A model generated the notes under the pieces. That model did not search any database, was not told the origin of the DNA, and worked only from the letters and a program-made list of their open reading frames with translations. From assembly GCA_017535725.1 (NCBI GenBank), contig JAFXTO010000002.1:21752-85751 (forward strand): a stretch of 64,000 nucleotides of DNA. The letters run 5' to 3'. Shown here piece after piece: positions 274-17,539 of this stretch (within the stretch, counting starts at the first letter, position 1; each line of letters begins with the position of its first letter). Source of the DNA: Bacteroidaceae bacterium. Its GTDB lineage: Bacteria; Bacteroidota; Bacteroidia; Bacteroidales; Bacteroidaceae. The position numbers and the translations under genes are program-made.

Positions 274-3200
274 ATGCAAAATACCTCTGAAAGCCTGACA
301 AGTACCCTCTTCCGGAAAGGTGTACTACTGAAACTACAACTGCAAGACGGCACAGACCTGCAAGGACAGGTCGTGGACGTCAACCCGGAAGGCATCCTGC
401 TACGTGACGACGAAGGAAACCAAACCATACTCACCTCCGACCTGCTGACCCACGCCTTGTACCTCTACAGCGGCTTCCCCACGCAAGAGGCAGAAGTGGA
501 AGTGCCGGTAACGGTGGCCGGTAACGGTTATATCCGCAGCTATAATGGTAAGATAGGATTCACCGACAATCAATTTGTCATCCAACCAGATTCCCTCCTC
601 GACGCCACCCTCCGTCAAGACGCCCAGGCCTTTCCTGCCAGTATTGTAGACCGTGAGGTACTGGTTGTGGTAGAAGAAGGTGCCGTGAAGAAGGCGTACT
701 TGCTGAGTGTGGGCGCCCTCGATGCCGTACTCGACAAGATTGCCGAGCTGGCAGCCATGCGCAAATACTCACTGGCTCGCCGCTTCTGTGAACTCTTGTC
801 GAAGCAGTTCCCCGAAGATTCTGACATCGCCAACTTCCTCCAGAAACTGCAGGACGCCACGAACTCGGGCAAGAAGGTGGACTTCTATCAGCCCATACAA
901 AGTGCAGAGGAACGCCAGCAGGCACAGGACAACGAAGAACTCCTGCCCATGGGACGCATCTTCGAAATGAACAACTATAAAAATGGATACATCATCGACG
1001 TGAGAAGCCACAAGAAGCTATTCTTCCACCGAGAACAGCTCTTGGGCGAACTGGAACGAAAGTCCACGCAGGAACTAATCGGACAGCCCGTGGTTTATTC
1101 CATCACACGAGTCAACGACAAGTTGCAAGCCCGTAGCATCATGGCTCCCATGCAGGTGGACGATGCCTTCCAACTGGCTGAAGTCAAGTACCGACAAAAG
1201 GACATGACCCTGACCGCCTGCGACATCCTTCGAATCATCCTTCAGCAATATGAGGATGACTATATTGCTCGGACTTACAGCCAATGGAAAGCCAAACGTG
1301 AGTTCCTGCTTTGGTCTATAGAAGCACTACCCGACTACCAAGGACAACCGGTAAGCCTACGGCGTTCCATAGAGGTGCCCGGAACAAGCACCAAGGACGT
1401 GAATCTGGAGCGCAAAACCGACCACACCCAGATGGAAATGGGGTTCGCCCCACCCGAATGCCCCAAAATAACCTTCACGTCCGAAGAACCCGAAGAACTG
1501 ATAGCCATTGAGCCCGAACCTGACGGCGAACTACCCGAAGCACCGCAGGAAGAAAGCGAAGAAGCTGACAAGACTATTGACGAGACACCCTCCGAAACAG
1601 AATTGCAACCCGCCTGGGCCGAAGTTCGGAAGGAGCCTGAAGAGGTCTTTGAGATGCCCACAGAAGAGGAGATTGCTGCCAGCGAGGGTGCCGAATCCGT
1701 GGTACAACCCAACGCCAGGCTCACCTATCATTACGGCGATGGGATTTTATACGACCGCCAAGGGGAGCAGTACAGCTTCACCCTCGATGACATCATCGAC
1801 GACACGTTGTTTGAAGAGGTGCGCAACAAGAACAACAATTCCGATGATTACGTGCGCGAGCGCGAAGTCATCTGCCAGCTCTACGAATCTGGAGGACGCA
1901 GGGCACGCAACATCTGCCGACCACTGACGGTACACGAATTGCTGCGTATGGCGCTGGACGCCTACAACACCGAAGACCTCGACTCGCGAGATCTGGAATA
2001 TATCAACGGGCTCATAGGCAACGTGCTCGATTATATCCCTAACAACATGGCTGCTAACCGAATGTACGATGTCGTTAGGATGCGAAGGGATACCGACAGC
2101 GAAACCTGCTACAAGGCGCCAGCAGGAGTGAAACCCTTCGGAACCATCTCCACGATTAATTGCGAACAGAAGCCTCAGCTGAAGATTAGCGACCCTCACT
2201 TCCGAAGACCCATACCTTTCCAGATTTCCGAAATCATCGACCGAGGCTACGACCACCAATGCCACGGCGATGAACTCATGTACTCCATCTATACCAATGA
2301 ACAAGGAGAGCCCATAGCACGATTCGTACATCGTGCAAAATCCGAAAGCGAGCTCTTCGCCTTAGCAGAGGACTGGGCAGGCAAAGGAGAGGTGGTGAAG
2401 GCATGGGCCATCATGATGAATTTGCTCGACCTCAACCCTGACAACGAGCGGGCCAAGCTGTTGGCTGCTGACTACGAGAACCATGCCGATGAACAAGGAG
2501 CGCCCTTCGTAGGTGAAGAGCTGAAACAGGGACGCCAATTCAATGACCTCCTGGCCCAGGCACGATTTTGTGCCGAACGGGGAGAACTGAATAAGGCACT
2601 CGAACTCTACGCACAGGAACTTCAAGACCCCAGGGAACCCGATAACCGAGCCTACTGCATCCGCGAGAGCATACAAATCTACAGCAAACTTTACCACGAC
2701 GACCCCACCGATACGGCTCTCCTCGCCGACTACCGCCGCTTTGGCGATATGTACATCAACTCGGAAAACGGTTTCGCCAACCAGACCAAGAAAGTACTGG
2801 AGAACATCCGGGTGGTAATCATCTACCACCAGGACATGGAAGAACCAGACAACCTGATAAGGGCACTCCGACGACTACTTCCATTGTTGCAGAACCCCAC
2901 AACATGGCCGCGGTTAAACGGAGACCCGCAGAGCATCATCGCCGCGACCCGAGCGGAACTGGCCTGGTCCCTCCTACGTCAGGGCAACAACCAGGAGGCA
3001 GAGGACATGACCCGTCTCAGCGAACGCTCCTTCGACAACGAGAAAGCGCGAATGTGTCGCGCGGTCATCGAAGAGCGAAAGGTGGGCACGGAAAAGAACA
3101 TTCGATGGTCACGGTCGTTCAGGCCTTACAACGTCTACGCACTCGACACCTGCGACTGTCGTGTCTCGGTACAACAGTCTCGGGAAAAGAAAGGCCTCAT

Positions 3201-5550
3201 CTACCACCGCTTCAAAATGCTATGCCAACTGCTGGACATGCAGAACGAGTCCCTTTCACAGGGCACACGCATGGACGAATCTTCCCGTACCCTCCTCATG
3301 AAGCTGCTGGCAGGGTATGTCTCCACCCTGCTGTGTGACGACTGGCAGCAATACGCCCGAGACAAGTTCCTACATCAGTACCTGCCCGGAGACTGTCAGC
3401 TGGTACTTCAGCTCAGCCGTTGTGTCTCCAAAGGACTCTCGTGGAACGGATGGATGGACCTCCGACTGATGTCCATGCTCTGCGGCGAGGCAGCCTACGC
3501 CATCTGCAGCATCCTCTTTAGCCTCAACCGCGACCAAGCTATCGATCTGTTGCGCAATTCCCACATCGAAATCAGCTACGAGAACAAGGCCGTTACACCG
3601 CAGTTCTACGCCGGCCGCTTCAACGAATGGCGTGGGGAGAACTTCCGAGACCTCCTCATCCAGGTGCTGCGCAAGTCCGAGGAACTGGTGGAACGACCCC
3701 GTTTGAGCGACTGCGCTGACTTCTTCCGCCAACTGACCTTCGAAGCGTGGATGTCTCAGGATGACAGCGACCTCATCACCGCCCTGCGACAACAGTTGCC
3801 CATACTCATCGCAGCCTTCCTCAGTTCCCATACGGAAAATGCACGCACTATCATCAACGCCTACCAGTCTTTGACCGGATTCCTTACGGACAAGATCGAA
3901 GCCATCAGCCAGCGTCCTACTGTCTTCTCGGCCGTCGTCCTGGACCCGCTGCTTAAGAAGATTCTCTCCGAGGCACAACTTCTCTACGACCGCCTGCAAT
4001 TCGAGGCTCCCCTGCCCAAGGCTACCGTCATCTCCACCTCACTCGTAGGAACCGATGGTTCCTTCCTCACCGAAGTTCAGGTGTGCAACGCCTGTCGCAT
4101 GGCCACACCCATGAAAGACCTGCATCTCATCGTAGACCACATCAGCGGCGGAGTGCAAACGGAGAAACCAATCATCTACTCCGATATCAGCAAGGTAGAT
4201 GGCAAAGTTTATGGCGAGGAATATGTCATCTATACCATTCGGGCACGACTTACTGGCGATTGGCAGCAGCAGCGCTCAGGACAGTTGCAGCTCCGACTGC
4301 TTTTCACCAACGAGGAGGGCACCCACCTCGAAGCACCCTTCGAACTCCCCTTCCCCATACAGGAGTGGACAGAGCAGACACCCAAGTTGCCTGAAATCTA
4401 CGCAGCTGGTCCCAAGGTAGAAGACGAGAAAATGTTCTACGGACGTGATGACGATGTGGCTGCTGTCGTCTCTGCCGTCGGAGCCACCAAGAACAAGCCC
4501 CACTACTTCATCTTTGGACAGAAGCGCAGTGGTAAGTCCTCCCTGCTCTACCACATCCAGAAGAAACTCCTCGCCAACTACCACTTCATCAGTGTAGAGA
4601 TGGCTTTCGCGGACTTCACCATCCACCGCGAGGAGCACATCTACCGCCACATCTTCTCTGCCGTACAGACAACCCTTGACTGGGACTACGACATATCCGT
4701 GGAGGACTGGACCGACGCCGACGAAACTTCCACCGATTCCATGACCTTCAGCCAGTTCGTCAACAATCTTAAGCACATCAACAAGACCATTGAGGCATCG
4801 GAACAATGGCATGACTACCGCCTTGTCTTCTTCATCGACGAGTTCACCACCTCCTACGAGTGGTTCGTCAGAGGGAAAATTCCCAAGGAATTCTTCGGAC
4901 GTTGGAAGAGTCTACAGGACAAAGGACTCTTCAGTGCCGTACTCATCGGGCAGGATGTTTTCCGCTACATCGTTCGCGACCTCGTACACAACGACTTCGG
5001 CAGCCTGCTGAATTTGGAACTCACCTACCTAAGCCGCGAAGCTGCCATGCGTCTGGTCACTGACCCTGTCGTAGAAGCTAGCGGCAACGCTGACATTTAC
5101 GTGGGAAATGCCGTACAACGCATCCTCTATTACTCGGCCAATAGCGCCTACTACACCCAATGGATATGCAGTGAACTCATCAAATATGTCAACGCCAACC
5201 GCCTGCAACTCATCACGGAAGCCGACGTCGAGGAATGCGTACACCGCATGATGAACGACGATCCCAACGAATTGAAAGTGAAGTTCTCACCTTTGGAATA
5301 CTCTGGCCGAGACCCCAAGGAGTCATGGCAATTCCCGCGAGAGGAAACCGTAGCCGTTCTCCGACAGGTTGCTCTGGCAGAAATCAGCGACCCCGTGCGA
5401 GGCTGTCCACGGTGGAAGATACACTCCGAGAACGGACGTACCGACGAGTTCCTGGCTGACCTCGTGGAACGACACGTGCTCACCGTCGACAACGACAACT
5501 ACAAACTTATCGTCAAACTTTATCTTTTATATCATGGACTTAGCAAATAA
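274..5550 (+). CDS. Giant (1758 aa) multidomain P-loop NTPase with N-terminal Sm-like and repeated cold-shock/OB-like modules, an acidic linker, a helical/TPR-like middle and a C-terminal STAND/AAA-like ATPase
   Basis: Single uninterrupted 5.3-kb ORF. Walker A is GQKRSGKS at 4516-4539, preceded by FYGRDDD. Walker B-like RLVFFIDEF lies near 4819-4845. The N-terminus LQDGTDLQGQVVDVNPEGILL resembles the Hfq/Sm pattern. Four G-x-I..G-[FY]-I..FFH-type CSD-like segments are visible. Confidence 0.85.
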   Translation: MQNTSESLTSTLFRKGVLLKLQLQDGTDLQGQVVDVNPEGILLRDDEGNQTILTSDLLTHALYLYSGFPTQEAEVEVPVTVAGNGYIRSYNGKIGFTDNQFVIQPDSLLDATLRQDAQAFPASIVDREVLVVVEEGAVKKAYLLSVGALDAVLDKIAELAAMRKYSLARRFCELLSKQFPEDSDIANFLQKLQDATNSGKKVDFYQPIQSAEERQQAQDNEELLPMGRIFEMNNYKNGYIIDVRSHKKLFFHREQLLGELERKSTQELIGQPVVYSITRVNDKLQARSIMAPMQVDDAFQLAEVKYRQKDMTLTACDILRIILQQYEDDYIARTYSQWKAKREFLLWSIEALPDYQGQPVSLRRSIEVPGTSTKDVNLERKTDHTQMEMGFAPPECPKITFTSEEPEELIAIEPEPDGELPEAPQEESEEADKTIDETPSETELQPAWAEVRKEPEEVFEMPTEEEIAASEGAESVVQPNARLTYHYGDGILYDRQGEQYSFTLDDIIDDTLFEEVRNKNNNSDDYVREREVICQLYESGGRRARNICRPLTVHELLRMALDAYNTEDLDSRDLEYINGLIGNVLDYIPNNMAANRMYDVVRMRRDTDSETCYKAPAGVKPFGTISTINCEQKPQLKISDPHFRRPIPFQISEIIDRGYDHQCHGDELMYSIYTNEQGEPIARFVHRAKSESELFALAEDWAGKGEVVKAWAIMMNLLDLNPDNERAKLLAADYENHADEQGAPFVGEELKQGRQFNDLLAQARFCAERGELNKALELYAQELQDPREPDNRAYCIRESIQIYSKLYHDDPTDTALLADYRRFGDMYINSENGFANQTKKVLENIRVVIIYHQDMEEPDNLIRALRRLLPLLQNPTTWPRLNGDPQSIIAATRAELAWSLLRQGNNQEAEDMTRLSERSFDNEKARMCRAVIEERKVGTEKNIRWSRSFRPYNVYALDTCDCRVSVQQSREKKGLIYHRFKMLCQLLDMQNESLSQGTRMDESSRTLLMKLLAGYVSTLLCDDWQQYARDKFLHQYLPGDCQLVLQLSRCVSKGLSWNGWMDLRLMSMLCGEAAYAICSILFSLNRDQAIDLLRNSHIEISYENKAVTPQFYAGRFNEWRGENFRDLLIQVLRKSEELVERPRLSDCADFFRQLTFEAWMSQDDSDLITALRQQLPILIAAFLSSHTENARTIINAYQSLTGFLTDKIEAISQRPTVFSAVVLDPLLKKILSEAQLLYDRLQFEAPLPKATVISTSLVGTDGSFLTEVQVCNACRMATPMKDLHLIVDHISGGVQTEKPIIYSDISKVDGKVYGEEYVIYTIRARLTGDWQQQRSGQLQLRLLFTNEEGTHLEAPFELPFPIQEWTEQTPKLPEIYAAGPKVEDEKMFYGRDDDVAAVVSAVGATKNKPHYFIFGQKRSGKSSLLYHIQKKLLANYHFISVEMAFADFTIHREEHIYRHIFSAVQTTLDWDYDISVEDWTDADETSTDSMTFSQFVNNLKHINKTIEASEQWHDYRLVFFIDEFTTSYEWFVRGKIPKEFFGRWKSLQDKGLFSAVLIGQDVFRYIVRDLVHNDFGSLLNLELTYLSREAAMRLVTDPVVEASGNADIYVGNAVQRILYYSANSAYYTQWICSELIKYVNANRLQLITEADVEECVHRMMNDDPNELKVKFSPLEYSGRDPKESWQFPREETVAVLRQVALAEISDPVRGCPRWKIHSENGRTDEFLADLVERHVLTVDNDNYKLIVKLYLLYHGLSK

Positions 5551-6094
5551 AAAAAATATCATTTGGGCGCGTATTCGCACCCTCGGACCGCAGTCCATCG
5601 TACTGCCCCCCTCCACGGACGACCATCAGGTAGCCCTCGCCCTCATCAGCGAGCTGGAAACCGAGATGCAAGAGGAACATTTCGTTGCCGTCACCATTCC
5701 CTGTGAGAAGTACACCACCATTCTCGACTTTTGGAAAGCGCTGACCATGGAGGTGTGGAAAGCACTGTGCCCTGTCATGCAGCCTCAGCTACGCTCCACT
5801 ATGGAAAACAAAGTCCTCCGCATGGCCCAGAGCCAGCGCACCATCGACCTCTTCAATGGACTGCTGCATTTCCTGAAACATGTGAGGGAGAAACAAGGCT
5901 TGAAGGTGGTGCTTATCCTCGAGAAGTTCGCCGCGCTCGTGGAGCTACAGGACGAGTCCGATGCCATGAAAATACGCCAGTTGACAGACGTGATGGCGCT
6001 ACTGACCCTCTCGGAGAAACCCCTGGTGGAACTCGCCGACAAATACAAGAACGAATACTTCTGCAACCAGTTTGTGGCCTTGCAGGCATCCTGA
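5534..6094 (+). CDS. Small (186 aa) partner protein; NTPase-like layout without a Walker A lysine
   Basis: ATG at 5534 overlaps the stop of the giant gene by 17 nt. VVLILEKFAAL resembles a Walker B strand with the acidic residues lost. GPQSIVLPPSTDD sits where a P-loop would be. The upstream part of tracked ORF 5369.. lies inside the previous gene and was discarded. Confidence 0.65.
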   Translation: MDLANKKNIIWARIRTLGPQSIVLPPSTDDHQVALALISELETEMQEEHFVAVTIPCEKYTTILDFWKALTMEVWKALCPVMQPQLRSTMENKVLRMAQSQRTIDLFNGLLHFLKHVREKQGLKVVLILEKFAALVELQDESDAMKIRQLTDVMALLTLSEKPLVELADKYKNEYFCNQFVALQAS

Positions 6095-6106: not shown

Positions 6107-7846
6107 ATGGAATACCCTTTTTCATTCGTGGGAAAGTCCTCCCTCGGAACGGACTTCGTGGGACGTGACAGCCAGTCCAAACTCATCACCGAACGCACCT
6201 TAGAGGGTAGCATGACCTGCATCGTGGGACTTCCACGAATGGGCAAGACGTCCCTCATAAACCACCTTTTCTTCGAATCTGGGCGTCCTGAGTGGTGGGC
6301 ACAGCACCACCTCCTGCCTCTCTACGTCAGCATAGACACTTGCGCCACAGCCGATGAGTTTTGGGGCAGTGTCGCCTCCCAGCTTTACCAAGCCGTCGAT
6401 GACTGGGTAGAACAGCAGCAGATACCCGTAGAGAACAAGGACCTACGGAAATTTTACGAAGAACTGCAGAAAGCCGACCATCCAGCTGCCGATGGCGCCT
6501 TCATCTTTAACAAGATGACAAACAGCCTTACCTCCTTGAAGAATCTGCAGTTGCAGGTCATCTTCATCTTGGACGAGCTCGACAGCCTGGGCCGGTACCA
6601 CTACGGCTACGACCACTTCCGTAAGATTCGCGCCCTTGCTAACTACGGACCGCTCATCACCTGCTCACGTAGACAGCCCCAAGCCATCGAGAAGAAGGCT
6701 TTTGACACCGACTATTTCTCCAACATGTCCGAGAAAGTCTTCATCGGGACGTTCACTCCCGACGAGGTTACGACCTACTGGCAACACTTCCGTCCGGCTT
6801 TCAGCCAGCTCAGTGGCCCCGAGTTCCGCGAGTACCGCAAACTCGTAGCACGCTACGCTGGCAACCATCCACACCTGATGAACCTGATGAACTACCACGC
6901 TCTGCATTCGGGGAACCTCACAGAATGGCAGCGCGCTATGGGAACAAGCCAACGCTACCGGCAGGAATGGCAGTTTCGTGCATCGCTGGTCGAAGCCTTC
7001 CGCGAACAGATGCGATACATAGAGGAACAGGAACTAAATAAAACGGCCATCGTAGCTGTGCTCGGAGGAGAACGCAAGGAGGACTTTGCCGACCAAATCA
7101 CCACCCTCAAGCAGTACACCTTCATCCGTGAAGTCACCAACGAGGAGAAACGAGCCCTCTTCACCTATGACCTGGGGCTGCAGACGCCGGACTGCAGATA
7201 CCGCTACGTTTGCCTCTCTGACTTCTTCAGCCATTTCATGCGTGACAACTACCTCCCTACCTACAAGGACTCAGAATTGCACATCGTCACCGAACTGAAG
7301 CTTCGGGAACTCGTTCGGGCATTCCTTCGACTGCAATTCGGCGATGATGCACTAAAGCCCATTGGCGATGATGAGTACGCCCACGAGCACTATGAGGAAC
7401 ACTGGGAAAAACCTTATCGCCTCTTCTGCGAACGCAAGGCACTCTTGTATTTCGACGAAGACAACGAGACTGCATGGAGCGAAATCAAGCACCGACGCTG
7501 GCAACTGACGCAGACCGACTGCAAGCCACCCTCAGAGCGACCACCCATCGACTTCCTTACAGGTCTCAACCTTCACCAGCTCAAGACATTCTTCCTCAAA
7601 CCCCTGTGGTTCACCTTCTTCGGCAAAGTGCTCGATGCCGAACAATGGGGAGAAAGCACCTATAAAGGCAATCGCGAGAGATGGATGCATACCTATTTCG
7701 ACCCTTTCCACACAATCCGTAACCGCGACAGCCACCGTAACCTTGTATTCATTACCGAGGAGGCCATCGAAAAAGCCCACAGCGCTTGCCGCAAGATTTG
7801 CCAGGACATTGACCGCTGGATGGCACAACAAGCAGATTCATTATAG
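6107..7846 (+). CDS. P-loop NTPase (STAND-like) with a C-terminal HEPN-type domain (predicted RNase)
   Basis: Walker A is GLPRMGKTS at 6227-6253. Walker B is VIFILDELD. AGNHPHL is a GxP-like motif. The C-terminal motif R-N-R-D-S-H (Rx4H) is at 7718-7735, within FHTIRNRDSHRN. The gene starts 12 nt after the previous stop. Confidence 0.85.
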   Translation: MEYPFSFVGKSSLGTDFVGRDSQSKLITERTLEGSMTCIVGLPRMGKTSLINHLFFESGRPEWWAQHHLLPLYVSIDTCATADEFWGSVASQLYQAVDDWVEQQQIPVENKDLRKFYEELQKADHPAADGAFIFNKMTNSLTSLKNLQLQVIFILDELDSLGRYHYGYDHFRKIRALANYGPLITCSRRQPQAIEKKAFDTDYFSNMSEKVFIGTFTPDEVTTYWQHFRPAFSQLSGPEFREYRKLVARYAGNHPHLMNLMNYHALHSGNLTEWQRAMGTSQRYRQEWQFRASLVEAFREQMRYIEEQELNKTAIVAVLGGERKEDFADQITTLKQYTFIREVTNEEKRALFTYDLGLQTPDCRYRYVCLSDFFSHFMRDNYLPTYKDSELHIVTELKLRELVRAFLRLQFGDDALKPIGDDEYAHEHYEEHWEKPYRLFCERKALLYFDEDNETAWSEIKHRRWQLTQTDCKPPSERPPIDFLTGLNLHQLKTFFLKPLWFTFFGKVLDAEQWGESTYKGNRERWMHTYFDPFHTIRNRDSHRNLVFITEEAIEKAHSACRKICQDIDRWMAQQADSL

Positions 7847-7878: not shown

Positions 7879-9153
7879 ATGACACACCGATACACTGCCT
7901 ACTTCTGTGGATGCCTGACGGCCAACAACGAAGTCAGCACCAGAAGCCTCATCGACGCAGGATGGAAGCAAGAAGAGAATAAAGAGATGGCTACCTATCA
8001 GGCCAAACACATTTATTACGACGAGTTCCTGAATTTCTGCGCTGCAAAGACACCGCAAGAAGGCTGTGTGGCGTGGAGGTATGAGATGAAAGAGGATGAG
8101 CGCGTTGGAACCTGCAAGAACCTACTCGATCAAGTTGTCATTTATCTCGTGCCTGCCTTGCATTGTTACATACTGCCTTTTGGTATAGTCATCTTCGCCA
8201 TTGAAGTCACCGCCGTGGATGAAGTCATGGACAACTTCATATCCATAGCCGTCCAACTGCGCCGTCTGGCAATCCCCCAAGGGGTGGCAGACGTCTTGCG
8301 CAAGTTAAAGAACAAAGTAACAGGAAATGAGCAGGTGGAACTGTCCGAGGCACTGGACTATGGCTACAAACTGAAGGTCTTTCAGATCATAGACTCTGAT
8401 GCGGCTTGGAACAGCGAGACGAATGAGGAGCGGAAACAGGTGCTGTTCCGATTAGGAGTCATACAAAGCAACAAATCCACCATATCCACGCGGTTCCAGG
8501 ACGGTTACGAGGAGGGCATCCTGAATCAACACAGCATCTCCGTTTTCAATAATTGGGATGCCTTAGCCCTGCTCGACTCCTTCACAATCCGTTCTATGCA
8601 ATGCGAGGATTGGCAGATGAAGGAGTGGCAAAACGCCTTCTTCCGCATGATTTACATCCAGAGCCTCTTCCAGAAATTCTATCTCCAAAGCCTGAACCAG
8701 CGTTTCCGTGCGATGGTGGAGCATCGAAGTAAGGACAAGTTAGCGAATTTACTAGCAGAGTTCGAACACTACGAACGCATCTGCCAATTCAACAAGGTGT
8801 CCTACACCTTCCTGCCACTCCTCATCGACAACGCCATCGACACCTCGTTGGAAATCAAAGAGGAGCGCGATTTGCTTTCTACCTACATCAAAGGAGAGGA
8901 GAAACGCCATGAGTCTGACAACGAACGAAGAATCAATCGTCTGTTGCTCGCCATTTCCTGTCTGACCATGTTCTCCGCCATCTGGGATCTCTCGAGTCTC
9001 ATGAACGAAATCCTACCCTACAATTGTTTCTTCTGCAGCACTCGCAGAGGGTATGCCATAATATCATCTGGTCTGCTTATTATCGTGCTGGTTCTCATTG
9101 CCTTCATTTATATAATGGGAAAAAGCAGGAACCGGAAACGGGACCAACAATAG
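7879..9153 (+). CDS. CorA-like membrane protein with a soluble N-terminal domain, two C-terminal TM helices and a basic tail
   Basis: NERRINRLLLAISCLTMFSAIWDLSSLMNEILPY aligns in spacing with the CorA N..LT..(TM1)..GMN..P segment, but has LMN instead of GMN. A second TM (GYAIISSGLLIIVLVLIAFIYIM) and the tail KSRNRKRDQQ follow. An alternative start is ATG at 7987. Confidence 0.7.
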   Translation: MTHRYTAYFCGCLTANNEVSTRSLIDAGWKQEENKEMATYQAKHIYYDEFLNFCAAKTPQEGCVAWRYEMKEDERVGTCKNLLDQVVIYLVPALHCYILPFGIVIFAIEVTAVDEVMDNFISIAVQLRRLAIPQGVADVLRKLKNKVTGNEQVELSEALDYGYKLKVFQIIDSDAAWNSETNEERKQVLFRLGVIQSNKSTISTRFQDGYEEGILNQHSISVFNNWDALALLDSFTIRSMQCEDWQMKEWQNAFFRMIYIQSLFQKFYLQSLNQRFRAMVEHRSKDKLANLLAEFEHYERICQFNKVSYTFLPLLIDNAIDTSLEIKEERDLLSTYIKGEEKRHESDNERRINRLLLAISCLTMFSAIWDLSSLMNEILPYNCFFCSTRRGYAIISSGLLIIVLVLIAFIYIMGKSRNRKRDQQ

Positions 9154-9179
9154 CGGTTCACCCGAACAAAAAAGTGTTC

Positions 9180-9211
9180 GCTCCAAAGTGGGCATGAATC
9201 CACTTTGGAGC
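9180..9211. terminator. Bidirectional hairpin terminator between the convergent four-gene operon and mdh
   Basis: Perfect 12-bp stem: gctccaaagtgg (9180-9191) pairs with ccactttggagc (9200-9211), with an 8-nt loop and A/T-rich flanks. Confidence 0.65.
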
Positions 9212-9237
9212 GAGCAACAGGGAAGAAATAAAAATTC

Positions 9238-10224
9238 TTAGAGGTTTGCGTTGTCCTTGCCCCACTCCTCCACGGGAGGAATGATGCCGAGGCCAATGAT
9301 TTCGTCGCGCATCTTCTGCAGGTGCTCGTAGGATGCCTGAAGGGCAGCCATCTCTTCTTCAGTACCCTCGGGAGCCGTGAAGTGAACACCGTCCTTGTCA
9401 ATCACTGAGGGCATAGCCATCATCACATTCTTGAAGCCGAAGGCGTTGACATAGCAGCCAGCAGGCCAGGTGAAGGGTTCGCCACCCATAGCACCCTCAA
9501 TCATCTTGACAGCCTGATAAGCAGGGCTCTGGAAGGAGGAGCGGCCACGCAGCTTGATGATATTGCTGCCGCCCTGAGTGGTCATGTGCTTGATTTCTGC
9601 CCAGCGCTCGGCAGAGAGAGGCAGTTCGCTGAGGGGCTTGCCATCGATGAGAGCCTTGCTGGCAAAGACTGCCATCTGTTCGCCGTGACCACCGTAGGTG
9701 TAGGCCTGAGTGACCTTGTCCTGCTGCACGCCGAACTCCTGAGCCAGCTGCTGCTGCAGACGGGTGCTGTCGAGAGCGGCCAGGGAGGTAAGCTGGTTGG
9801 GCTTCAGACCAGAGTGGATAAGAGCGGTGAGGGCGGTGACGTCAGCGGGGTTGAAGATGACGACCACGTGGTTCACATCGGGGCAGTACTTCTTGATGTT
9901 CTCGCCGAAGTCTGCTGCAATCTGGCAGTTACCCTTGAGCAGGTCCTCACGTGTCATGCCTTCCTTACGGGGAGCACCACCGGAAGAGATGATGTACTTA
10001 GCACCCGTGAAAGCTTCCTCTGCATTCACCGTATAGGAGAGGTTTGCACCGGGGAATGCGCAGTGGCACATCTCATCGTACACACCATGAACGCCGGGCT
10101 CATAGATATCGTAGAGGCAGATGTTTGGGGTCAATCCCAGCATCAGGACACTCTGAACCATGTTCGAACCAATCATGCCACCGGCACCTACAATCACAAG
10201 TTTGTCATTCGTTAAGAATTTCAT
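9238..10224 (-). CDS. mdh: Malate dehydrogenase (LDH-like family)
   Basis: MKFLTNDKLVIVGAGGMIGSNM Rossmann N-terminus. 328 aa; length and sequence are typical of Bacteroidota Mdh. Confidence 0.93.
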   Translation of the reverse strand: MKFLTNDKLVIVGAGGMIGSNMVQSVLMLGLTPNICLYDIYEPGVHGVYDEMCHCAFPGANLSYTVNAEEAFTGAKYIISSGGAPRKEGMTREDLLKGNCQIAADFGENIKKYCPDVNHVVVIFNPADVTALTALIHSGLKPNQLTSLAALDSTRLQQQLAQEFGVQQDKVTQAYTYGGHGEQMAVFASKALIDGKPLSELPLSAERWAEIKHMTTQGGSNIIKLRGRSSFQSPAYQAVKMIEGAMGGEPFTWPAGCYVNAFGFKNVMMAMPSVIDKDGVHFTAPEGTEEEMAALQASYEHLQKMRDEIIGLGIIPPVEEWGKDNANL

Positions 10225-12427: not shown

Positions 12428-12703
12428 ATGAGCACCGCAACACTGTCAAGCCTGTTAGAATATCTCTACGCCACACTCTCGCCAAGCAACATGCGCTGGG
12501 TGGGTGAGCATCTGATTGAATACGCCAAGAAAGAAGAGGAGGAAGAAGCCCTAACGCCTTACACCAGAGAGGAACTGCTGGAAAGAGCCGAGGAAGGACG
12601 GCGGCAAATAGCAATGGGCAACTATTGCACGATGGAAGAACTCCTTCAAGAATTGGATGAGGATTTTGCGGAAGACAATAAACCACAATACGAAATAGCA
12701 TGA
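12428..12703 (+). CDS. Putative antitoxin of a type II TA pair
   Basis: 91-aa acidic helical protein. Its stop overlaps the start of the downstream toxin-like gene (ATGA, 4-nt overlap). Confidence 0.55.
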   Translation: MSTATLSSLLEYLYATLSPSNMRWVGEHLIEYAKKEEEEEALTPYTREELLERAEEGRRQIAMGNYCTMEELLQELDEDFAEDNKPQYEIA

Positions 12704-13011
12704 GGGTATTTGTCCACGACGTCGTTAAGGAGAAAATCCGCACGACATCGAGATACATTCAAGCTAATTTCGGGAAGAAAGCACGTCTGAACTTTCGACA
12801 CGAAATAGCTCATGTCTCCCAACTCCTACAGAAGAACCCCAACCTCGGTCCGGCAGAGCCTTATCTTGCGGACGCTCCTGTCCTATACAGAAGCATCGTC
12901 GTAAATCACCTCAATAAAATTGTCTATTGGATTAACGACGATGTCATTGAAATCGTTGACTTCTGGGATACACGACGCGAACCTGTATCACAAGCCCAAC
13001 AGGTGAAGTAA
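12700..13011 (+). CDS. RelE/ParE-family toxin
   Basis: 103 aa. The size and the C-terminal IVYWINDDVIEIVDFWDTRREP are typical of ParE/RelE-fold toxins. Translationally coupled to the upstream small gene. Confidence 0.7.
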   Translation: MRVFVHDVVKEKIRTTSRYIQANFGKKARLNFRHEIAHVSQLLQKNPNLGPAEPYLADAPVLYRSIVVNHLNKIVYWINDDVIEIVDFWDTRREPVSQAQQVK

Positions 13012-13832: not shown

Positions 13833-14933
13833 ATGCTGATTAAGTTCGCTGTAACCAACTTCCGAGGGTTTGCCAAACGTATTGAATGGGACTTGTCGAA
13901 GCCCAGTAATTATGCCTTTCGTTCGGAGGTCATCAAGGATGGTATTATCAAAAATGGAATCATTTACGGTCCAAATGGTGTTGGCAAGTCAAACTTTGGC
14001 CTTGCCATCTTTGACATCGTTTATCATTTAACCATCAAATGGAAGAAAGGTGATTATCTGAGCAACTACACCTATGCCGGTAAGACGGATATGCCTGTTT
14101 CGTTTGAATACGCATTTATGTTAGGCAGCGACCTCGTAGAATACAACTATTCGAAGAATCATGCTGGAGTGCTTCTTTCGGAAACGCTTCGTGTAAACAA
14201 TCATCAAGTATTCAAGCAGGACAAAGAAACTTTCGAGATTGACGAAACGCAGTTCAAAGTTGATGCGACGATTCAGAATAATTTCAAGCAGAGCGTAAAC
14301 GGTGCTTCTGTTATTGCCTTTTTGACTGCGTCGTTCCCACTGCCGCAAGAGCACTATATTGTCAAACTGTTGCAATTCGTCAACTCCATGCTTTGGTTTA
14401 AATGTCTGGAGAGCCGTGAGTTTATTGGTTTAGAGACAAGCAACATAGAATTGGATGCCTATATTATCCAGAATAATCTCGTTGGAAACTTCAAGAGTTT
14501 CCTAAAGCAAGTGAGTGAGCAAGAGTTTAATTTTGTCAAGCCAAACGAAGGGGACAAACTACTATTCTGCGAAATCGACGGGAACAAAATGCCGTTTATC
14601 AGTATTATTTCAACAGGAACCAAGTCTCTGCAATTACTCTATGTCTGGATGCAAGAGATGAAAAATGCCTCGTTCGTCTTCATTGACGAGTTTGACGCGT
14701 TCTATCATTTCAAGCTGGCCTTTGAGGTTTGCATGCAACTTTTCAAGTTGGATTGTCAGATATTCATGTCATCACACAACACCTATCTGATGACAAACGA
14801 CCTGTTGCGACCCGACTGTAACTTCATCATCGGTGACAACAAAATCAAGCCCTTGAACGACTGCACAGAGAAAGAACTCCGCTTCGGTCATAATATTGAG
14901 AAACTTTTCCGCGGTGACGCATTCCGAGTATGA
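13833..14933 (+). CDS. AAA/ABC-type ATPase (AAA_21/RloA/AbiLi-like)
   Basis: Walker A is GPNGVGKSN near the N-terminus. Walker B/D-loop is FVFIDEFDAF. H-loop is SSHN. 366 aa. Confidence 0.85.
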   Translation: MLIKFAVTNFRGFAKRIEWDLSKPSNYAFRSEVIKDGIIKNGIIYGPNGVGKSNFGLAIFDIVYHLTIKWKKGDYLSNYTYAGKTDMPVSFEYAFMLGSDLVEYNYSKNHAGVLLSETLRVNNHQVFKQDKETFEIDETQFKVDATIQNNFKQSVNGASVIAFLTASFPLPQEHYIVKLLQFVNSMLWFKCLESREFIGLETSNIELDAYIIQNNLVGNFKSFLKQVSEQEFNFVKPNEGDKLLFCEIDGNKMPFISIISTGTKSLQLLYVWMQEMKNASFVFIDEFDAFYHFKLAFEVCMQLFKLDCQIFMSSHNTYLMTNDLLRPDCNFIIGDNKIKPLNDCTEKELRFGHNIEKLFRGDAFRV

Positions 14934-15694
14934 TTTTGTTCGTATTTGAAGGAGAAAAAGAGAGCCCGACCTTTTCCACACGTTGGAGCGTTTATATTTC
15001 CCAAGGGATAACAACCGCATAGTCTGTTCTTTTGGGAATAACCTCTATTACTTGTACAAGGAACTGGAGAAATACGGTGAAGATGGTGACATTGTTGCTA
15101 TCATGAAAGAACTACTGGCAAGGAAGGAGGACAATCCATTAGCCAACATAAAGCGTTCTTCTGACTTCTCCGAAATATACCTTTTCTTCGACTATGACTT
15201 CCATCATAAACAGCTGTCTGTTGAAGAAATCAATCTCCAAGTCAGCGAGATGTTATCCCTTTTTTGCGATGAAACAGACCGAGGCAAGCTCTACATTAAT
15301 TATCCGATGATTGAATCCATTCGATACACGAAGGAATTGCCGGATGAGAACTATCACACCTACGTAGCCACAAGAGAAGAATGCCGCCACTTCAAAGCTT
15401 TGGCAGATTCCTTTTCAGTCTATTCATCACTCGATTTCATCCTATTGAAAGAAGAGAAACCAACAAAAAAGAAATATATGTCGGTGCATGACAACTGGGA
15501 ATATCTTAAAGATCAGAACGTCAAGAAGGCAAACTTCATTTGCAACGACATCTGCGCTTATCCTACGACAAAGAGAGCAATTTCGCAAGACATCATATTT
15601 TGCCAGTCAAGTCTCAAAATATGTGGATACAGAGAAGACAGAAGTTGCTATACTAAATGCCCTTCCGATATTCCTATATGAATACTTCAAATAA
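14930..15694 (+). pseudogene. Toprim/RloB-like partner gene interrupted by two single-base homopolymer indels
   Basis: ATG at 14930 overlaps the ATPase stop (ATGA) and gives MILFVFEGEKE (Toprim Glu strand). The frame breaks in the A-run at about 14953-14961 and continues as REPDLFHTLERLYF..LFFDYDFHH (DxD). A second break at the T-run near 15598-15601 restores the first frame, giving ASQVSKYVDTEKTEVAILNALPIFLYEYFK and a stop at 15694. Confidence 0.6.
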
Positions 15695-15760: not shown

Positions 15761-15879
15761 TTGTGATGGATTTGTGCAATTATCTAAGCCTAAATGCTCA
15801 AATTAGCAAGAAAAGAATGGCGATACGGGAAATCTTTGTACTTTTGCAACACTAAATACGGAATCTTTATGGCAAAGAA
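15761..15879. repeat. Direct repeat copy 1 (119 bp: promoter, 5-prime UTR and codons MAKK)
   Basis: Near-identical to 19148-19267 (one extra T and one substitution). Contains TACTTTTG at 15839-15846. Confidence 0.9.
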
Positions 15880-17539
15880 GAAGAATAAGAAGCAGAAGGG
15901 GCAGCAGTTCCTCTCACCAGAGCAGTATATTAGGCAGAAAGCGCGGACGCTGGAAATCGGCAAGTGTTATGTAGACAACGACCTCGAAAAGGCGGGCGAG
16001 GGTCACATCATCGTCAGCCGCAAGCATACTGGAGGAAGGGTGAGCATCGGTTTCTATCTCGTGGACATCTGGTGTGTCGGCGTGAAGCGCTCGTTTTATC
16101 GTCTGCGCATGGAGGACTATGAGCTCGACGAGATGATAGATTCGTACCAGCTTAATTTGCGCGAATGTAGTTACGACGAGGTCCACAACTGGATATACGG
16201 AGCCATTGCCTTCGCCGAGGAAGCTGGCATTGCTCCCGACAAAAGTTTCAACCTGACACAATACTTCCTCGAGGAGGACGATGATGATATCCCCCTCATG
16301 GAGTTCGACTTTGGCCGAAAGGGCAAGCATACGCTGGTCGCCAGCAGCAATTTAGAGGCCAGCCGCTATCTGCCTCTGCTCGAGAAGAATCTCGGCAAGG
16401 GGAACTATGATTACATCCTTCGTGTAGACGAGGATGATGATTTTGAGGAAGACGAGGATGATGATTTTGATGAAGACGAGGTCGAGGAATCCGAAGGCCC
16501 TATTTATATGCGCCAATTGGTAGATGACATAGAAATTAATGACCTCTTGGGATGTGCTGCAATCCTTGGATTGAAGATTGACACAAAAGCTTCAGAAGAA
16601 GAGATTCGCCGACAATATATAGAAGGTGTACTCTCCGACCCATACGACATACTTTGTCGTCTGCCGAATGAGGACACGGCCATGCTGGAAACAGCACAGA
16701 ATGAGCATGACAACCGTGTCTTTTATCCAGATAACTATCGAATGCCTTTGCTCTATCATTATGGCTTTGCTGATGAGGATTGGGACGAGGATGGCAATCG
16801 TGTGATCCAGATAGCCAAGGACTTTGCGGACGCCATGTCGCCTCACTTGGCAACTGCGTCGGAAGAACCTGCCAATATGGGACGTCTCATCATGGAGGCC
16901 GTCATCGACGGACTGGCTAATCTCTTCGGTGAGATACGCTTAGATGAGGCTAAACGATATATAAAGATGGTTTTTGACCATAAAGAGGACCTGAATGTGG
17001 ACAGACTCTCACAGTTGGTTATGGGACACTCCCTGCTGCTTGACTGGATGGCCGTGCCTCTTGGCCCCGCCCACCAATCGGTGTATGAACTTCCTGACGA
17101 CCAGGTGGTCTTTTTGTCCCTCTATGGATGGAATACGCCAGAGAAGCTGCGCGACAAGATAGCTCAGCGCCAAACGATTCCGAGCCGAAAGGACTACACC
17201 ATGGAGGAGATTATCCAATCATCCTCCGTACTGCCAATCATCCCGAATCCAGAAGCAAAGAACTTCCACCGGTTCCTTCAGACGACACTCGGCTATGACG
17301 AAGAAGAGGCTAAAGAAATCTCCTTCAACCTGTGGTATCGCGCCCAGCACGAAGAGGACGAGAGTTTCGAAGACGGCACCTATCAGGACTATTTCACCAA
17401 AGAGGTTCTCCGTCAGGCTCCCAAGCGCATAGGAATGAAACAAATGAACGAAGCGATTTCGGCACTGACCAACTACATGAATGCCATGCCACGCTGGATA
17501 CTGAAAGGGCATTCTCCTAATGAGGTGAACGAGTTATAA
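15869..17539 (+). CDS. Hypothetical protein (556 aa) with a basic N-terminus and an acidic D/E tract
   Basis: Long ORF. Start chosen at MAKKKNKKQKG (ATG 15869), 23 nt after a TAnnTTTG element. No recognisable catalytic motif. Confidence 0.75.
   Translation: MAKKKNKKQKGQQFLSPEQYIRQKARTLEIGKCYVDNDLEKAGEGHIIVSRKHTGGRVSIGFYLVDIWCVGVKRSFYRLRMEDYELDEMIDSYQLNLRECSYDEVHNWIYGAIAFAEEAGIAPDKSFNLTQYFLEEDDDDIPLMEFDFGRKGKHTLVASSNLEASRYLPLLEKNLGKGNYDYILRVDEDDDFEEDEDDDFDEDEVEESEGPIYMRQLVDDIEINDLLGCAAILGLKIDTKASEEEIRRQYIEGVLSDPYDILCRLPNEDTAMLETAQNEHDNRVFYPDNYRMPLLYHYGFADEDWDEDGNRVIQIAKDFADAMSPHLATASEEPANMGRLIMEAVIDGLANLFGEIRLDEAKRYIKMVFDHKEDLNVDRLSQLVMGHSLLLDWMAVPLGPAHQSVYELPDDQVVFLSLYGWNTPEKLRDKIAQRQTIPSRKDYTMEEIIQSSSVLPIIPNPEAKNFHRFLQTTLGYDEEEAKEISFNLWYRAQHEEDESFEDGTYQDYFTKEVLRQAPKRIGMKQMNEAISALTNYMNAMPRWILKGHSPNEVNEL

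Follow-up and report, generated by a model that had tools for sequence, protein, structure and literature searches.

What does the gene at positions 6107-7846 of this stretch of DNA encode, and what part does its product play in the operon that surrounds it? The stretch, which we call the window, comprises 64,000 nucleotides (nt) of contig JAFXTO010000002.1 (positions 21,752 to 85,751; assembly GCA_017535725.1) and stems from a metagenome-assembled genome (MAG) of an uncultured member of the Bacteroidaceae. Here, we show that the gene encodes a P-loop nucleoside triphosphatase (NTPase) fused to a C-terminal Swt1-like HEPN domain, that the motifs of both parts are conserved across a small and sparsely distributed family, and that its position in a multi-gene operon is kept in independent Bacteroidales loci. 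We propose, with a probability of about 60%, that this NTPase-HEPN protein serves as the constant effector subunit in a rare putative defense system of two to four genes (three or four in gut and rumen Bacteroidales), in which the HEPN domain would act as a ribonuclease (RNase) switched on by oligomerization. The public name of the window protein (MBR4532963.1 at NCBI) is only "ATP-binding protein"; at present, databases thus give no sign of the HEPN RNase domain.

The gene is an intact open reading frame (ORF) with an ATG start and a product of 579 amino acids (aa), and its parts are as follows.

6107-7846, plus strand: gene for the NTPase-lid-winged helix-HEPN protein (ORF, homolog alignment, AlphaFold model)
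6107-6751, plus strand: P-loop NTPase core, aa 1-215, five parallel strands (AlphaFold, Foldseek, sub-threshold Pfam matches)
6227-6253, plus strand: Walker A, GLPRMGKTS, aa 41-49 (invariant residues in 22 homologs)
6566-6583, plus strand: Walker B, ILDELD, aa 154-159 (D156, E157 and D159 invariant)
6665-6673, plus strand: sensor-1-like S187-R188-R189 within ITCSRR (invariant in 22 homologs)
6758-7027, plus strand: helical lid, aa 218-307, with the GxP-like Y250-A-G252-N-H254-P255 (AlphaFold helices)
7037-7249, plus strand: winged-helix domain, aa 311-381 (AlphaFold: helices 311-319, 324-336, 345-352 and 372-381, strands 340-344 and 365-369)
7262-7837, plus strand: Swt1-like HEPN domain, aa ~386-577 (AlphaFold, PF18731 via relatives, hhalign)
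7292-7306, plus strand: upstream acidic Ex3[KR] motif, E396-x3-R400 within ELKLR (E396 invariant in the 22 homologs and in the distant set)
7718-7735, plus strand: R538-N539-R-D-S-H543, predicted RNase catalytic motif (invariance and position in the model)

The strings from which the initial annotation had read a STAND-like P-loop core and a Swt1-type HEPN domain, namely GLPRMGKTS (aa 41-49), ILDELD (aa 154-159), AGNHPHL (aa 251-257) and HTIRNRDSHRN (aa 535-545, containing R538 and H543), all lie where it had placed them, and the two longer segments LKLRELVRAFLRLQFG and EEAIEKAHSACRKICQDIDRW correspond to aa 397-412 and aa 550-570, respectively. In a single sequence, an R-x4-H string is uninformative here because about 1.5 occurrences are expected from the composition of the protein, which contains three; the corresponding expectation for RNxxxH is 0.05. 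The signal comes instead from conservation.

A search of 5.8 billion proteins recovered 22 full-length homologs of the NTPase-HEPN protein (alignment A1), which share 29-47% identity with it and are all 560-592 aa long. Residues invariant across A1 mark Walker A (G41, L42, P43, R44, G46, K47 and S49), Walker B (D156, E157 and D159), the sensor-1-like stretch (S187, R188 and R189) and the lid (G252 and P255), and they include E396, R538, N539 and H543 of the C-terminal domain. A profile of the C-terminal domain of the window clade (A2) was then searched against 1.84e9 proteins, each representing one 50%-identity cluster of about 15 billion proteins, and retrieved only 75 representatives at E ≤ 1e-3, nearly all of them 500-620 aa long with the domain at the C-terminus. 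Among 47 distant full-length relatives, whose mean column identity is 20%, the sole invariant columns are the glutamate of helix 1, the R and the H of the motif, and one cysteine. R-x4-H falls within the last 95 residues of 65 of the 67 full-length family representatives, and the stricter R[NDH]xxxH within those of 64; in the other three, the motif is displaced by a C-terminal extension or no polar residue follows the R. The R/H pair, on whose conservation among homologs the initial annotation had made its HEPN assignment depend, is invariant both in A1 and in the distant set.

By the published definition, HEPN domains are recognized in sequence by R-x4-6-H, by a polar residue (N, D or H) directly after the R, and by an upstream Ex3[KR] (PMC3710099). 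All three hallmarks are present here, as R538-x4-H543, N539 and E396-LKL-R400, and in the distant set the R of Ex3R reaches a conservation of at least 90%. AlphaFold predicts long helices at aa 389-411, 451-470, 523-538 and 551-575, with short inserted helices at 483-509, and the isolated domain was modeled at a predicted local distance difference test score (pLDDT) of 90.9. The helix at 523-538 ends with R538, and H543 sits in the loop before the last helix, a placement in agreement with the published HEPN description (PMC3710099); our reading of the model uses AlphaFold secondary structure only, and the loop of H543 (542-548) is the model's only low-confidence loop.

The family to which the domain belongs was established through relatives. 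PF18731 (HEPN_Swt1) is the top Pfam family for the C-terminal domain, and it is weak in the window clade, where a Pfam scan of 18 C-terminal domains gave weak matches only (HEPN_Swt1 in 2 of 18, best E 0.01). Three of the top seven Pfam families across the clade's C-terminal domains are HEPN_Swt1, NTase_sub_bind and HEPN_RiboL-PSP, all of which we take to be members of the Pfam HEPN clan. Among the distant relatives, PF18731 matches 24 of 47 (best E 1.7e-8), and two of ten relatives examined individually pass its gathering score of 27.5 with near-full profile coverage (P0060, 29.3 bits; P0065, 29.6 bits). The domain profile of the window clade retrieves these same two proteins from the 1.84e9 at E 7.3e-6 and E 2.9e-5, respectively, and hhalign joins the window clade to compact distant relatives at 99.7% (E 6.7e-26) with the TExxLR helix and RNxxxH in register. 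For the gene of a further relative, at locus L020, the precomputed Pfam annotation is HEPN_Swt1 together with nSTAND2. Window-clade domains carry an insert that is larger by about 50 residues, which accounts for their lying below Pfam HEPN detection. Overall, the C-terminal domain is solidly placed among Swt1-like HEPN domains, and its predicted catalytic set is complete. The Swt1-type assignment and its R538-x4-H543 motif have therefore held up, as has the C-terminal position of the domain; its extent has not, since the large insert between the core helices makes it about 190 aa long (aa ~386-577) rather than the roughly 130 aa first proposed. As a side observation, two distant relatives (P0054 and P0087; 621 and 626 aa) bear an extra beta-rich extension of about 80 aa C-terminal to the HEPN domain and have the motif R-R-P-x-A-H; this extension recalls the "STAND-ATPase, TPR, S1" architectures of the 2013 HEPN survey.

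The N-terminal part was examined in an AlphaFold model of the whole protein built with the 22-sequence alignment (pLDDT 88.8, predicted template-modeling score 0.86). The order of domains in this model, an NTPase core followed by a helical GxP-type domain and a winged helix, is that expected of a STAND/ATPase_2-type NTPase. A Walker A of the form Gx4GK[ST] is kept in 65 of 67 full-length relatives, and S187-R188-R189 resembles, by inspection, the hhhTSR(P) of STAND NTPases (compare "ISTRP" in the NACHT protein of locus L017). Within the lid, Y250, G252 and P255 are invariant across A1 and H254 is at least 90% conserved; the spacing is G-x-x-P, hence the motif is only GxP-like. Foldseek matched the whole model to the archaeal Walker ATPase 2qen (E 1.3e-7), to 2fna and to many ORC/Cdc6 subunits, with Avs4 lower (ranks 31 and 36); these whole-protein matches are ATPases with a winged helix-turn-helix. 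Pfam matches of the window protein stay below threshold (AAA_16, 24.8 against a cut-off of 32.6; nSTAND3, 15.2 against 27.2; also AAA_22 and nSTAND6), and Pfam, NCBIfam and PADLOC yield nothing for it beyond such sub-threshold P-loop families. Relatives do rise above the cut-offs (P0058 with ATPase_2 at 34.3 against 33.2 and AAA_16 at 33.1 against 32.6; P0048 with nSTAND1 at 28.0 against 27.1), and many of the 47 distant relatives also match AAA_16, AAA_22, ATPase_2 and nSTAND1. The N-terminus is thus supported as a STAND-type P-loop NTPase of the ORC/Cdc6 or ATPase_2 kind, both of whose Walker motifs are intact, in keeping with the STAND-like core of the initial annotation. A repeat-type sensor (TPR, WD40 or LRR) is not found in this polypeptide, which ends with the HEPN domain; TPR-like repeats lie instead on a separate giant protein encoded upstream.

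This giant protein is one of up to three partners, and the remaining elements of the operon are listed here.

274-5550, plus strand: giant partner protein of 1758 aa, predicted sensor/scaffold (ORF, Pfam, locus conservation)
5534-6094, plus strand: small protein of 186 aa, dead paralog of the NTPase core (BLASTP, hhalign, alignment of 7 orthologs)
7879-9153, plus strand: optional gene 4, 424 aa, a soluble N-terminal region and two C-terminal transmembrane helices in a CorA-like topology (sequence)
9178-9213, no strand assigned: hairpin with a 14-bp perfect stem and a T-run, between gene 4 and the convergent malate dehydrogenase gene (9238-10224, minus strand)

The hairpin likely marks the end of the operon and is likely a bidirectional terminator. 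The order giant (1461-1803 aa), small (182-191 aa), NTPase-HEPN is kept in 7 independent Bacteroidales loci, and wherever upstream sequence exists, the HEPN gene is preceded by a giant gene. Two-gene versions, which consist of a giant gene and a compact NTPase-HEPN gene and lack the small gene, occur in Pirellulaceae, in Lamprobacter and in another metagenome, with NTPase and HEPN motifs intact; the C-terminal 500-640 aa of the giant protein are common to the giant proteins of these distant versions.

The N-terminal ~1250 aa of the giant protein consist of repeated beta-rich modules and TPR-like helical repeats and contain no recognizable enzymatic domain. Its C-terminal ~500 aa comprise a beta-rich domain, a P-loop NTPase whose Walker motifs read GQKRSGKSS (A) and FIDEF (B), and a tail of the winged-helix type, with Pfam matches to AAA_16, AAA_22, nSTAND1 and ATPase_2 at aa 1382-1562 and a weak one to TPR. 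By hhalign (91.6%, E 8e-7), the NTPase at its C-terminus is homologous to the one with which the HEPN protein begins. Four beta-rich repeats (aa ~70-150, 218-300, 470-560 and 615-700) were also noticed within aa ~70-700 (window 274-2400, plus strand), with the pattern G-x-I...(F/Y)F...D/G-x-L...G-x-x-V-x-Y...A-R, as was an acidic, proline-rich linker of variable length between repeats (aa ~400-470); the L006 ortholog lacks this linker along with the repeats at aa ~470-700. A cold-shock (CSD/OB) identity of the beta-rich modules, suggested by G-x-I...FFH...GQxVxY, was not supported (hhalign against CspA/CspB, using approximate queries, gave 3%), and Pfam and PDB profile searches found neither a CSD nor an S1 domain in the giant protein.

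The small gene shares 17 nt with the giant gene, and a gap of 12 nt lies between it and the HEPN gene. Its product matches aa 66-206 of the HEPN protein by BLASTP (E 8e-6) and the NTPase core by hhalign (98.9%, E 1.5e-17, 179 columns), and none of the 7 aligned orthologs has a GK[ST] Walker A or a DE Walker B. Judged by sequence, the three NTPase modules of the giant, small and HEPN proteins are paralogous, and we predict that the small protein serves as an adaptor, cap or regulator of an NTPase assembly. That the gene immediately upstream of the HEPN gene encodes a truncated paralog of precisely the HEPN protein's own NTPase core would also suit a toxin-antitoxin-like module, in which the NTPase-HEPN protein is a constitutively active RNase toxin and the dead paralog an antitoxin or decoy that binds its core, the more so as protein antitoxins commonly accompany HEPN toxins (PMC3710099). 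However, the small gene, found in each Bacteroidales locus for which upstream sequence exists, is absent from the distant versions, which keep the same catalytic HEPN domain; the ever-present partner is the giant protein, and in both large proteins the Walker motifs are intact, which speaks for a regulated NTP switch. We therefore regard an antitoxin role of the small protein as unlikely.

Searches of Pfam and of PDB profiles found no enzymatic effector domain in the giant protein, and none was found in the small protein. The HEPN domain is the likely effector of the conserved core because no other enzymatic domain was found there, an argument by elimination. The initial annotation had singled out the NTPase-HEPN gene as the most likely effector of the operon, which fits the conserved core; within the window, the product of gene 4 is a second candidate.

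Gene 4 gives a weak PADLOC CorA match (E 0.011), and its only ortholog among the family loci is in that of the closest relative (48% identity); ORFs of similar size that follow the HEPN gene in L011 and L012 were considered as orthologs and proved unrelated. Its homologs close other STAND operons: they come after NACHT proteins in L017 (9001-10275) and L018 (9001-10257), and in L020 (8001-9269) after a pair consisting of a compact giant and an NTPase-HEPN_Swt1 protein. The family is small and unannotated, with about 25 clusters and no Pfam match. We consider gene 4 a candidate portable partner or effector module, and thus a candidate second, membrane-directed effector or an anchor in the window. 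With regard to the NACHT proteins themselves (L017 7309-8985, L018 5539-7209), we observed a conserved E84-x3-R88 and R151-N-x3-H156 in their N-terminal region; these motifs by themselves suggest an N-terminal HEPN domain, whereas the region has no Pfam HEPN match and reached less than 1% in hhalign against HEPN profiles.

The membrane topology of gene 4 raises the question of whether its product, rather than the HEPN domain, is the killer. On such an account, the HEPN domain would bind or sense RNA without cleaving it, as proposed for eukaryotic Swt1, whose HEPN dyad is inferred to be inactive (PMC3710099), and the protein encoded at 7879-9153 would act on membranes by means of its two C-terminal transmembrane helices. 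Besides the weak CorA-like match, the fact that gene 4 homologs close at least three different STAND-type operons at their 3' end, in the manner of a swappable effector, would be in line with this account. Family-wide invariance of E-x3-R and R-N-x3-H is, however, expected of a catalytic site and not of a mere binding surface, and gene 4 is absent from most family loci, which would have no effector if their HEPN domain were not catalytic. An RNA-binding HEPN domain paired with a membrane killer is consequently improbable, and a catalytic HEPN domain remains our preferred reading.

Several observations weigh against a HEPN RNase serving in defense. Pfam finds no HEPN domain directly in the window protein (PF18731 is absent at E ≤ 0.1 for the whole protein and at E ≤ 10 for the C-terminal domain), and a PDB sequence-profile search returned only a spurious glycosyl hydrolase (E 7.9). 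Foldseek comparison of the isolated domain model with the PDB gave generic helical bundles at best (E 0.33), with the solved HEPN protein 4nqf in 19th place (E 2.7, TM-score 0.26-0.33), and comparison with BFVD gave no significant match. Eukaryotic Swt1 HEPN domains are thought to be inactive, while the bacterial Swt1-like branch is described as active (PMC3710099). At the level of the locus, homologs are absent from the plasmid and phage collections searched, the GC content of the operon equals that of its flanks, and no system of PADLOC-DB v2.0.0 matches the operon, for which there are only P-loop-level matches at E ≥ 1e-4 (mad8, PDC-S60, PDC-S01) in addition to CorA.

The structural part of these observations could point to an unrelated helical bundle at the C-terminus, with a lineage-specific R-x4-H in some other role such as nucleotide or metal binding; the sub-threshold, generic Foldseek matches and the missing direct Pfam match would be as expected. 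Yet the relatives, found at library-wide E values between 1e-5 and 1e-10, are genuine members of PF18731 and are joined to the window clade at hhalign 99.7%, all three HEPN hallmarks are present, and the motif occupies the canonical secondary-structure position. An unrelated bundle is accordingly very improbable. As to the four-helix HEPN fold named in the initial annotation, secondary structure and motif placement fit, while the 3D similarity search, with no significant match to solved HEPN structures, speaks neither for nor against it.

The observations at the level of the locus, for their part, could indicate that Bacteroidales use the operon as an RNA-processing machine with a housekeeping or stress-linked role, outside any conflict or defense. 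The operon has a host-like GC content and is flanked by housekeeping genes for malate dehydrogenase and an aminopeptidase; the lack of phage or plasmid copies and of a PADLOC system match would agree. Relatives of the NTPase-HEPN protein were found in Prevotella/Prevotellaceae, Bacteroides thetaiotaomicron and Bacteroidia MAGs, and the family as a whole is scattered over Bacteroidales, Planctomycetota and Chromatiales. Such a distribution, very sparse and patchy with its 75 representatives in 1.84e9 proteins, speaks against housekeeping, as do orthologs that are merely 29-47% identical and a neighborhood that differs at every locus, with defense-type genes (TIR, HicA, PDDEXK and HD) nearby. 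We give a housekeeping role little credence and retain a role in defense as the more plausible function of the NTPase-HEPN operon.

In the window itself, two further candidates for conflict systems are located within 7 kb downstream of the operon. One is a ParE-family toxin gene (12700-13011, plus strand; 23.3 bits in Pfam, where the cut-off is 23) that overlaps the end of a 91-aa ORF (12428-12703), so that 12428-13011 is probably a ParDE-type toxin-antitoxin pair. The other, at 13833-15681 (plus strand) and about 4.7 kb downstream of the operon, is a candidate defense system in a stretch where GC falls to 0.40-0.46; it consists of an AAA_21 ATPase (PADLOC PDC-M12A, E 6e-129; also AbiLi- and AriA-like) and a partner (PDC-M12B, E 3e-49). 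A 581-aa ORF that follows this pair (15794-17539) has no family match.

How might the operon work? In HEPN RNases, two HEPN domains come to lie side by side and together make up a composite active site. By analogy with Avs, in which STAND proteins oligomerize upon ligand binding, the giant protein would recognize a trigger as sensor or scaffold, whereupon the paralogous NTPase modules would hetero-oligomerize in a nucleotide-dependent manner and bring two HEPN domains together into a composite R-x4-H active site. Metal-independent RNA cleavage could then lead to growth arrest or abortive infection, in keeping with the catalytic roles described for the HEPN R and H (PMC3710099), while the dead paralog might cap or gate the NTPase assembly. 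We further put forward, tentatively and as a proposal that we ourselves rather doubt, that the operon stands for a new family of immune machines, in which the three paralogous ORC/STAND-like modules, each on its own protein, form an ORC-like hetero-oligomer that switches on the RNase, and that the protein with two transmembrane helices is a portable membrane effector or anchor for unrelated HEPN/STAND systems (NACHT- and ATPase_2-type), which here would make for a dual abortive response directed at RNA and membrane. If this were true, the operon would point to a new portable partner module common to several STAND systems.

It remains to place this operon among known systems. The combination of a STAND NTPase with a Swt1-like HEPN domain as a conflict-system effector is already known and has been in the literature since 2013, when STAND-ATPase fusions in the Swt1-like HEPN family were tabulated (Anantharaman et al., PMC3710099). 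The HEPN sub-family, established here through relatives, is the same, as are the hallmarks Ex3[KR], R-N-x3-H and the polar residue after the R, and so is the general idea of a STAND NTPase, TPR repeats and a HEPN domain predicted to be an active RNase. Unlike in those fusions, the TPR/sensor region is located on a separate giant protein with its own paralogous NTPase, the window clade has the larger HEPN insert (by ~50 residues), and the Bacteroidales operon adds a dead NTPase paralog. Among PADLOC candidates, PDC-M34B matches the HEPN domain of distant relatives (L013, E 9.5e-13; P0065, E 3.6e-5) and so shares its type; its profile is short (~190 positions) and without an NTPase fusion, the window protein does not match it, and our literature search found no paper validating PDC-M34. 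Neither did that search find an experimentally characterized equivalent of the operon, and the part of a 2026 survey of bacterial STAND receptors that was accessible does not mention the architecture.

Avs/AVAST systems (Avs4, PDB 8dgf) likewise combine a STAND-type NTPase, a TPR sensor and a nuclease-type effector, and Avs4 is among the Foldseek matches given above. In Avs, however, effector, NTPase and sensor follow one another in this order on a single polypeptide, whereas here sensor and effector reside on separate proteins, each with its own NTPase, and no PADLOC Avs model matches the operon. A further parallel is the two-gene nSTAND2 counter-invader operon (Kaur, Iyer, Burroughs, Aravind 2021, PMC8195603, Fig. 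6C), in which a HEPN or GT4 effector is borne by an inactive STAND module. Both arrangements have adjacent proteins with homologous STAND modules, one of them with a C-terminal effector that is often HEPN, both include an inactive NTPase module, and a toroidal hetero-multimer was predicted for the nSTAND2 pair. PF20702 (nSTAND2) has no match in the window proteins and matches 5 of the 47 relatives (best E 4.2e-5), with P0046 at 22.9 bits against a cut-off of 24. In the nSTAND2 pair it is the effector-bearing STAND module that is inactive, whereas in the present operon Walker A and B are invariant in the NTPase that bears the HEPN domain, and the role of inactive module falls to a truncated 186-aa protein of its own.

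The operon thus differs from the published systems in three respects: 1) the NTPase that bears the HEPN domain is predicted to be active, 2) the inactive module is a separate, truncated protein, and 3) the partner is a giant TPR protein. If the proposed roles are correct, gut and rumen Bacteroidales would possess a rare STAND-type system that splits sensing and killing between two active NTPase proteins, with a dead paralog as third subunit, an arrangement unlike both the single-chain Avs and the published nSTAND2 pair. The advance would lie in architecture and mechanism, not in kind, and the operon would offer a tractable test case for the hetero-oligomeric STAND gating of HEPN RNases.

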